Shown: piece after piece, positions 57-595 of the stretch
How positions within the stretch are numbered: the first letter of the stretch is position 1
Layout: every line of letters starts with the position of its first letter
NCBI GenBank assembly: GCA_046758745.1
Contig: JBHIAV010000059.1
Location: forward strand, 1 to 14,350
Source: Gemmatimonadota bacterium
Lineage (GTDB): Bacteria; Gemmatimonadota; Gemmatimonadetes; Palauibacterales; Palauibacteraceae
Direction: 5' to 3'
Length of the DNA: 14,350 nucleotides
Program-made: the position numbers and the translations under genes
The notes under the pieces: model-generated
Seen by the model: only the letters and a program-made list of their open reading frames with translations
Database searches by the model: none
Told to the model about the DNA's origin: nothing

Positions 57-323
57 TCAGGCGGCCTTGGAGGTTCCGGATGACTTCCCTTTCTTGCTCT
101 CCTTTCGCATCGACGGTCCTTTGAGCGTGATCTTGTGGGCGCGATGGACCAGCCGGTCGAGGATGGCATCCCCGAAGGTGGGATCTCCGATCACCTCGTG
201 CCAGTGGTCCAGGGGCAGCTGGCTGGTGACCAGGGTGGCGCGTCGGCCATAGCGGTCCTCGAGCACTTCGAGCAAGTCCCGCCGCTCGATGTCGGAGAGC
301 GGGGCGAGACCGAAGTCGTCGAG
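57..323 (-). pseudogene. istB: IS21-family IstB ATPase, 3' half only (copy A), starting at Walker B
   Basis: Minus-strand frame reads [73 protein letters not shown], the IstB C-terminal motifs. An in-frame TAA from the palindrome lies directly upstream and there is no Walker A or start codon. Confidence 0.92.
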
Positions 324-343
324 TTATGTGGAGCTCCACATAA
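324..343. repeat. Perfect 20-bp palindrome TTATGTGGAGCTCCACATAA joining the two istB halves
   Basis: Read directly; the sequence equals its own reverse complement and is AT-rich relative to its flanks. Confidence 0.97.
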
Positions 344-595
344 GTCGACGAGGTCGGCTTTCAGCCACTCACCCGGCAGGAAGCGAGCCTCTTATTCCGG
401 CTCGTGAGCTACCGCTACGAGCGGGGCTCGACCCTCATCACCACCAACAAGGCCGTCAAGGACTGGCCCGAGGTGCTGGCCGGCGACGAGGTCATGGCCG
501 CCGCGCTTCTGGACCGGCTCCTTCACCGCTGCCACGTCCTCAACATCAAGGGCCGCAGCTACCGGCTTCGCGGCCTGGAACGCCTGGCGAAATGA
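344..595 (+). pseudogene. istB: IS21-family IstB ATPase, 3' half only (copy B), starting at Walker B
   Basis: Frame from 344 reads VDEVGFQPLTRQEASLLFRLVSYRYERGSTLITTNKAVKDWPEVLAGDEVMAAALLDRLLHRCHVLNIKGRSYRLR*. It is preceded in frame by the palindrome's TAA. Confidence 0.92.

Follow-up and report, generated by a model that had tools for sequence, protein, structure and literature searches.

A 20-bp palindrome between two truncated istB genes as a probable RIT-derived footprint in a Gemmatimonadota contig

RIT (recombinase in trio) elements, which carry the genes ritA-ritB-ritC, are reportedly known first from Cupriavidus metallidurans CH34, where Van Houdt is said to have described them in 2009, with a further account by Ricker in 2013. 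Mobile elements that home into other mobile elements are represented by the IS1111 group, which enters integron attC or REP sequences, and by Tn7-like elements; the CTX phage is an example of an integrating element that depends on Xer, and the dif site of the Xer system has the core sequence CATAA-N6-TTATG. Here we analyze a stretch of 14,350 bases (the window), the complete contig C59 of a Gemmatimonadota metagenome-assembled genome (MAG; 3.07 Mb in 130 contigs, 68% G+C, 87% complete), in which a perfect 20-bp palindrome stands between the 3′ halves of two istB genes from insertion sequences (ISs) of the IS21 family. The window carries a RIT-derived footprint, in which ordinary tyrosine-recombinase chemistry has been used in an undescribed way.

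According to the available excerpts of the published accounts, RIT elements have a size of about 3.5 kb and ends that vary, and 'no convincing' binding sites are given for them (Van Houdt 2012, PMC3414803); imperfect palindromes of 47 and 51 bp are found at their ends (Nielsen 2017, PMC5737581), RitA, RitB and RitC are counted with the 'simple' tyrosine recombinases related to Xer (PMC8138268), and both target specificity and mode of movement are entered as 'NT' (not tested) in Table 1 of a comparison of such systems (Idola 2023, PMC10214605). Elsewhere RitABC is only listed in a table (PMC10322971), or the acronym RIT denotes rho-independent terminators (PMC12306157). In the literature searched, to which Ricker 2013 does not belong, we found no description of homing to istB, of a palindrome confined to one end of the element or of junctions made by a solitary palindrome.

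The palindrome, TTATGTGGAGCTCCACATAA, was confirmed at 324-343, inside the region 309-358 noted in a preliminary description of the stretch, and it is single-copy in the window and in the whole MAG (Table 1). Its 20 bp belong to neither istB and are the only RIT-derived DNA of the window, where the 10-mer half with at most one mismatch gives two matches against 0.17 expected by chance. Read outward, the left flank on the minus strand is CTCGACGACTTCGG (LDDFG...) and the right flank on the plus strand is GTCGACGAGGTCGG (VDEVG...); the string STCGACGASKTCGG had been correctly given as common to both breakpoints. Both flanks are bona fide C-terminal halves of IstB: istB-A matches Pfam PF01695 (IstB_IS21) over profile positions 159-236 of 238 (E 8e-26) and istB-B over positions 159-233 of 238 (E 3e-28). 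As both matches start at profile position 159, the two breakpoints fall on the same codon, and the earlier claim that both genes are cut at one Walker B codon holds. They differ from IstB of intact IS21-family elements in that everything before position 159 is lacking and the palindrome stands directly upstream of each, so that neither has the combination of Walker A and Walker B found in full-length IstB; since Walker A and most of the AAA+ fold are missing, neither fragment can be functional.

The two fragments share 29 of 74 residues in BLASTP (39%), in agreement with the roughly 28 of 74 that had been counted by hand, and the outward DNA flanks agree at 21 of 40 bases. Therefore the flanks are not an inverted duplication, and two different IS21 elements have been hit, as proposed. 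A chance palindrome or a local inverted duplication within one IS21 element is hardly conceivable: although the inverted repeat reaches 24-nt arms with 88% complementarity, this explanation is refuted by the divergence of the flanks and by the occurrence of the same 20-mer, beside RIT genes, in at least 122 other loci.

Table 1. Features of the palindrome junction in the window (positions of the whole stretch)
Feature	Position	Strand	Remarks
Perfect 20-bp palindrome TTATGTGGAGCTCCACATAA	324-343		Two back-to-back arms of RIT type, TTATGTGGAG / CTCCACATAA
istB-A 3′ fragment, first IS21-family element	57..323	-	88 codons LDDFG...SKAA, stop 57-59; Pfam match
istB-B 3′ fragment, second IS21-family element	344..595	+	83 codons VDEVG...RLAK, stop 593-595; Pfam match
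Hexamer CTCGAC, codons L-D of istB-A	318..323	-	Presumed left crossover (overlap) segment
Hexamer GTCGAC, codons V-D of istB-B	344..349	+	Presumed right crossover segment

The identity of the palindrome emerges from public genomes. An exact-match scan, which covered one genome per species, placed the identical 20-mer in at least 122 public loci, complete chromosomes among them, from Acidobacteriota, Verrucomicrobiota, Proteobacteria, Myxococcota, Planctomycetota, Firmicutes and others. The usual pattern is that two more copies of the 10-mer (T[TA]ATGNNGAG) lie on one side at offsets 6 and 23, and that the six bases next to the palindrome on its inner side are the reverse complement of the six next to it on its outer side. 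Two of these loci (L004 and L005) are located 3.2 kb apart on one contig and enclose three open reading frames (ORFs) of 327, about 297-320 and 338 residues, and in the relative L128 all three ORFs belong to the Phage_integrase family. This palindrome-bearing element with its three ORFs is a RIT, and the agent suggested in the preliminary description, a tyrosine-recombinase element, is supported. In tblastn with the three L004/L005 proteins, Rit genes adjoined the palindrome in 37 of 123 loci, many of which offered only 300-bp flanks to this search, and always on one side. An arm detector could score 116 loci (115 public ones and the window; seven loci were too short): RIT arms were located on exactly one side in 69, on both sides in none, and on neither side in 47 'solo' palindromes, to which the window belongs. 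Very probably, the palindrome of the window is the outermost arm pair of a RIT element and the junction was made by a RIT; its 10-bp arms are predicted binding sites of the Rit proteins.

Complete RITs with the identical palindrome end, which have three adjacent integrase-family genes and a length of about 3.2-3.6 kb, can be observed inside istB itself, at the very codon in question, as the preliminary description had demanded of its proposal. L124 and L128 each carry one within a single istB. L124 begins with the istB 5′ half (...AAVILD, last codons TTG GAT), which is followed by TCATGTGAAG, 7 nt and TAATGTGGAG; then come ritC-ritB-ritA on the other strand, CTCCACATTA, 7 nt and CTTCACATGA; and the element closes with ATCCAA, the palindrome, TTGGAT and GATCTGGGATAT (LDDLGY). 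L128 is built alike, but with the hexamer ATTGAC and with its palindrome on the RitC side. In both, the palindrome is found only at the end facing the istB 3′ half, and the hexamer stands at both junctions with an inverted copy inside, so that the order is 5′ half, hexamer, the element (arm2′, arm3′, rit genes, arm3, arm2, inverted hexamer, arm1′, arm1), hexamer, 3′ half. Because the two codons of the hexamer, the h-D pair of the IstB Walker B motif, are present on both sides, the istB 5′ half extends to position 160 of the IstB profile and the 3′ halves match it from 159 onward. Among 80 RitC-related loci examined, both ends were detected in 33 elements: a single palindrome is present in 25, on the RitA side in 15 and on the RitC side in 10, while seven have none, two of these detections being doubtful, and one has two. 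Among the 25 elements with one palindrome, the inner hexamer beside it and the outer hexamer are exact reverse complements in 15, the inner hexamers of the two ends are identical in 14, and both relations hold in 11; the other 14 deviate from one or both by 1-4 bases.

A further locus, L052 / L126 (G003:C31), presents an IstB 3′ half that is 69% identical to istB-A of the window and adjoins the palindrome, with RIT arms beyond it; as a search within 2 kb detected no Rit genes, it may be a truncated or miniature RIT derivative.

Compared with these elements, the window shares the identical 20-bp palindrome, which is the outer end of the trio elements, but it has no RIT genes and no arm at offset 6 or 23 on either side, and it is therefore a footprint or by-product rather than an element. 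As in dif, a complete RIT end consists of a 10-bp arm ending in CATAA, 6 bp and an inverted arm starting with T[TA]ATG, whereas the arms in the window stand back to back with their outer ends touching and 0 nt between them, so that the dif-like arrangement of two arms around a central region of 6-8 bp is absent and the palindrome itself is not dif-like. A further difference from Xer/dif systems is that each arm in the window is paired with a hexamer and with istB sequence that is not cognate to it, and that a RIT supplies three recombinases of its own.

The junction could have been created by the assembler if it had jumped strands through the short palindrome and had joined unrelated copies of IS21. 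The palindrome is indeed located in repeated DNA, 323 bases from the end of contig C59, and the assembly graph branches at 323. We addressed this with Logan contigs compared with positions 1-1400 of the window, taken from the four runs (X1-X4) of one study, labelled hydrothermal vent metagenome, in which the stretch is present. In X3, whose sample was not flagged as a possible source, a contig of 614 nt runs over positions 1-569 with zero changed letters, and contigs of X1 (194 nt, 294-487) and X2 (185 nt, 303-487) also span the palindrome. The depths of the bridging contigs (11.2, 10.4 and 9.3) are similar to those of unique downstream contigs (11.6 in X1, 12.1 in X2). The branch, seen in X1 and X2, is a contig of depth 5 that continues for 30 letters into uninterrupted istB-A, on the minus strand ...DRLQRTELLI directly before LDDFG, and this intact side branch locates the break immediately before CTCGAC. 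Assemblies made separately for each run thus bridge the junction unchanged in three samples; the true paths share only the 20-bp palindrome, with different hexamer bases next to it, and 20 bp is shorter than the usual assembly word sizes. The same architecture is also found in 16 unrelated metagenome contigs. An assembly chimera is accordingly very improbable, and the junction, whose bridging had been named as a check from the start, is real.

The same study also contains a complete RIT end. The X4 contigs, which leave positions 377-940 without cover, include one of 122 nt that reads arm CTCCACATAA, 7 nt, arm CTGCACATGA and then window positions 318-348 with one changed letter, this last part being the hexamer, the palindrome and GTCGA. 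The 27-nt RIT-end string of this contig gave 0 matches in public genome contigs and 0 in metagenome contigs.

How such a footprint could arise is suggested by the geometry of the ends. From the sequences we infer where the crossovers lie, how the events followed one another and which contacts are made between protein and DNA, as set out here. RITs of the istB lineage repeat a 10-bp arm of the type CTCCACATAA at both ends, and the unit arm-N6-inverted arm has the core geometry of dif. In a circular or end-to-end RIT, the order arm2-hexamer′-arm1′-arm1-hexamer-arm2′ would form two back-to-back dif-like cores that share the 20-bp palindrome. Integration would then be a crossover of a hexamer with an identical or near-identical h-D codon pair in the Walker B motif of istB (NTNGAY GA), giving istB 5′ half, hexamer, RIT, inverted hexamer, palindrome, hexamer and istB 3′ half; a one-hexamer crossover with the target p1-hexamer-p2 reproduces the observed insertion exactly, and the symmetry of the junction accounts for a palindrome that is found now on the RitA side, now on the RitC side. 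Strand exchange is placed in the hexamers because the GAGCTC centre has no spacer between its arms and is never the repeated unit. The crossover is most likely located in the hexamers, just 3′ of CATAA, rather than in GAGCTC. The position just 3′ of CATAA, as in dif, had been anticipated in the preliminary description and agrees with the placement in the hexamers, but its crossover across the GAGCTC core is not supported, since the arms abut and the repeated unit is the hexamer beside CATAA.

A conservative recombinase cannot leave the 3′ halves of two genes by excision from a single insertion; therefore two targets must have been used. In the proposed scheme, a RIT would first sit in istB-B, and its inner core (arm2-hexamer′-arm1′) would then recombine with the same motif of istB-A. 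One product would be the 20-bp palindrome alone between two istB 3′ halves, as in the window, and the other would be the 3.5-kb part of the RIT, now without its palindrome, between two istB 5′ halves. With ISs in the same orientation on one replicon the event would lead to inversion, between replicons it would lead to fusion, and with ISs in opposite orientation the palindrome-bearing product would be an excised circle. Both IS21 copies are inactivated. That the window is the small product of one RIT crossing over with two istB genes is, in our estimation, probable.

The route from one RIT and two targets predicts a palindrome-less RIT between istB 5′ halves, and a product of this type exists. 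On a complete 2.95-Mb chromosome (G011), L153 is a RIT between two different istB 5′ halves with the palindrome at neither end; its ends run directly through the hexamers CTCGAT and ATTGAC into the 5′ halves (...RTEVLVLD with GPTGVGKT, and ...RPALLIID with GPPGTGKS; Pfam ranges 2-160 and 6-160). L163 is a product of the same kind for Y1-transposase genes. A different history was given in the preliminary description, in which two RITs inserted separately into istB-A and istB-B, after which their end palindromes recombined site-specifically at the centre, with deletion of what lay between; homologous recombination between the copies would have the same effect. Both RITs, both istA-istB 5′ parts and the intervening DNA would be removed, and the sequence left behind would match the observed one exactly, each istB keeping its native hexamer. 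The RIT end of X4, with its palindrome beside GTCGA, is a possible parent form, and RITs are often present in several copies per genome, according to the available part of PMC3414803. On the other hand, this history needs three events instead of two and is not required, as one RIT and a naive istB are enough; the palindrome centre, where the arms abut, has no dif-like core geometry; a variant with inversion predicts arms on both sides of the palindrome, which were found in 0 of 116 loci; and the palindrome-less RITs between 5′ halves (L153 and L163) are left unexplained. Two separate insertions followed by deletion are therefore an unlikely, if still serious, alternative to the crossover of one RIT with two istB genes.

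In addition to L153, G011 has one palindrome-like site (L209, G011:C1:971891-971910; TTATGTGGAACTCAACATAA, with two mismatches), which is flanked by the hexamer CCGTTC on both sides and has arm-like repeats ATATGTTGCG and TTATGTTGCG to the right; it marks one end of another RIT-like element, different from L153. In Sorangium (G006), among five long-contig genomes searched, RitB of L005 gave only weak matches (E 2e-11, 30% identity).

The architecture of the window is recurrent. When metagenomes were scanned for the palindrome flanked by NTNGAYGA, read outward, on either side, 27 contigs with 54 flanks were obtained, several of the contigs coming from related samples and repeating the same istB pair. 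At least 20 codons are open in 47 of the flanks, and 43 of these 47 match IstB from position 159. In 16 of the 27 contigs the two flanks are both such IstB 3′ halves, most of the pairs being clearly different proteins. Public flanks starting with hD[DE] are IstB from position 159 in 8 cases out of 11, and the remaining flanks belong to a HEPN-domain gene, to a DEAH-like sequence and to an unassigned ORF. The proposed insertion at the Walker B codons of istB is thus borne out, and the non-IstB flanks indicate that the recognized feature is a DNA motif most often supplied by istB. Outward flanks that are homologous in register were found in 7 of the 47 solo palindromes (the window, L015, L024, L045, L063, L080 and L110). 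By eye, the palindromes of L015 and L024 join IS66-type genes at the AHxRRKF and RKNWLF motifs, and that of L045 joins two Y1/IS200-like genes at the ...NH[YI] HUH motif. In two metagenome loci, L216 and L223, the IstB flanks are nearly the same protein where visible (17 of 18 and 20 of 36 residues), and these are either two copies of one IS21 or a fold-back artefact of assembly.

Several points weigh against the crossover of one RIT with two istB genes as the origin of the window. First, nothing of the partner product was found in this organism: a Rit-like trio is absent from the window and from the entire MAG, with only scattered single integrase matches on C4, C27, C94 and C100, and the search of the MAG gave no RIT genes, no RIT arm pairs except one weak chance match, and no 5′ side of istB-A. 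The reciprocal product is therefore unobserved in this organism, whose MAG has a completeness of 87% and is interrupted at repeats. Second, the two products were never found together in one genome; G011, when searched, had neither istB 3′ halves nor a matching solo palindrome, an outcome that looks like deletion and not inversion. Third, the left and right hexamers of the window, read outward, differ at one base of six (CTCGAC versus GTCGAC), and classical tyrosine recombinases tolerate heterology in the overlap poorly. Fourth, the sequences that bridge the junction are contigs, all from a single study, and neither raw nor long reads. Fifth, 40 of the 47 public solo palindromes have no in-register homology of their flanks. 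About 20 of these 40 are perfect 32-bp palindromes (TCGGCC, the 20-mer and GGCCGA) whose further flanks are non-homologous, as in L003, L006, L009, L013, L018, L020, L022, L026, L039, L070, L087 and L090. Solo palindromes may also form by another route, for example at palindromic targets like TCGGCCGA, where both cores could use one site. Finally, the available parts of the literature examined (PMC3414803, PMC10214605 and PMC5737581) contain no RIT recombination experiment.

The istB genes are not the only transposition genes next to which the 20-mer is located. Other RIT lineages with the same palindrome abut conserved motifs, recognized by eye, of other transposition genes: AHxRRKF / RKNWLF targets of IS66 type (L015, L016, L024, L028, L034, L066, L068 and L121), ...NH[YI]H HUH targets of Y1/IS200-like type (L033, L035, L045, L081, L101, L113, L163 and L164) and an HPHIH motif that is IS91-like in appearance (L023). 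The computation for the IS66, Y1 and IS91-like targets was confined to in-register flank homology. We regard it as an evenly balanced possibility that RITs are widespread 'transposon hunters', in which the hexamer of each lineage acts like a guide and homes to conserved catalytic-motif codons of other elements, the targets being the Walker B of IstB, two motifs of the IS66 TnpC, the HUH motif of Y1/IS200-like transposases and an IS91-like HxH motif. If this is true, a RIT with two back-to-back cores would recombine with two copies of its target and inactivate both ISs; the DNA between the copies would be inverted, deleted or fused, and 20-bp solo palindromes would be left, which could become landing pads for later RITs and give rise to elements with a palindrome at both ends.

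Two elements of the latter appearance were observed. The RIT of L004/L005, of the TCGGCC/GGCCGA class, has the palindrome at both ends, as if it had been integrated into a solo site, and is located about 160 bp downstream of a 608-residue ORF (L004 12-1838; palindrome at 2001), which by eye we take to resemble glmS, the classical Tn7 attachment region. L179 (MNUR01000082.1) represents a RIT lineage with the end palindrome CTATGTGGAGCTCCACATAG at both ends and with a different hexamer in each of the four hexamer positions (ATACTA/CTCCAT and ATGGAG/TTCCAT).

The rest of contig C59 resembles ordinary chromosome, with a HEAT-like ORF, a LuxR-type regulator, a ComM-like Mg-chelatase ATPase and MacB-type permeases. 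At the same contig end as the two istB fragments there is a third damaged IS: a transposase gene of the Mutator/IS256 family at 1689-2915 on the minus strand appears to be broken, as its 408-residue ORF matches Pfam Transposase_mut over profile positions 21-252 of 379 only, and an overlapping ORF in another frame (1766-2074) is apparently the C-terminal part of such a transposase.

The comparison with elements that home into other elements helps to define what is particular to this footprint. On the one hand, as with the IS1111 group and Tn7-like elements, a sequence-specific element lands on a conserved sequence of another mobile element. On the other hand, the target of the RIT is a codon pair of a catalytic motif inside a transposition gene, the agent is a trio of tyrosine recombinases, and the event fuses two IS copies.

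RITs are present in many bacterial phyla, and yet their movement, their recognition of sites and their need for three recombinases were still entered as 'not tested' in the available part of the 2023 comparison (PMC10214605). The window and its relatives provide a testable model of the site, in which 10-bp arms and a crossover hexamer of 6 bp make up two cores standing back to back, and they provide a defined natural target of a RIT, the Walker B codon pair of istB. They show that insertion sequences can fall prey to a site-specific element and that such an element can rearrange a genome between copies of an IS. In genomes and metagenomes, a solo palindrome such as the one described here could mark a past inversion, deletion or replicon fusion driven by a RIT.

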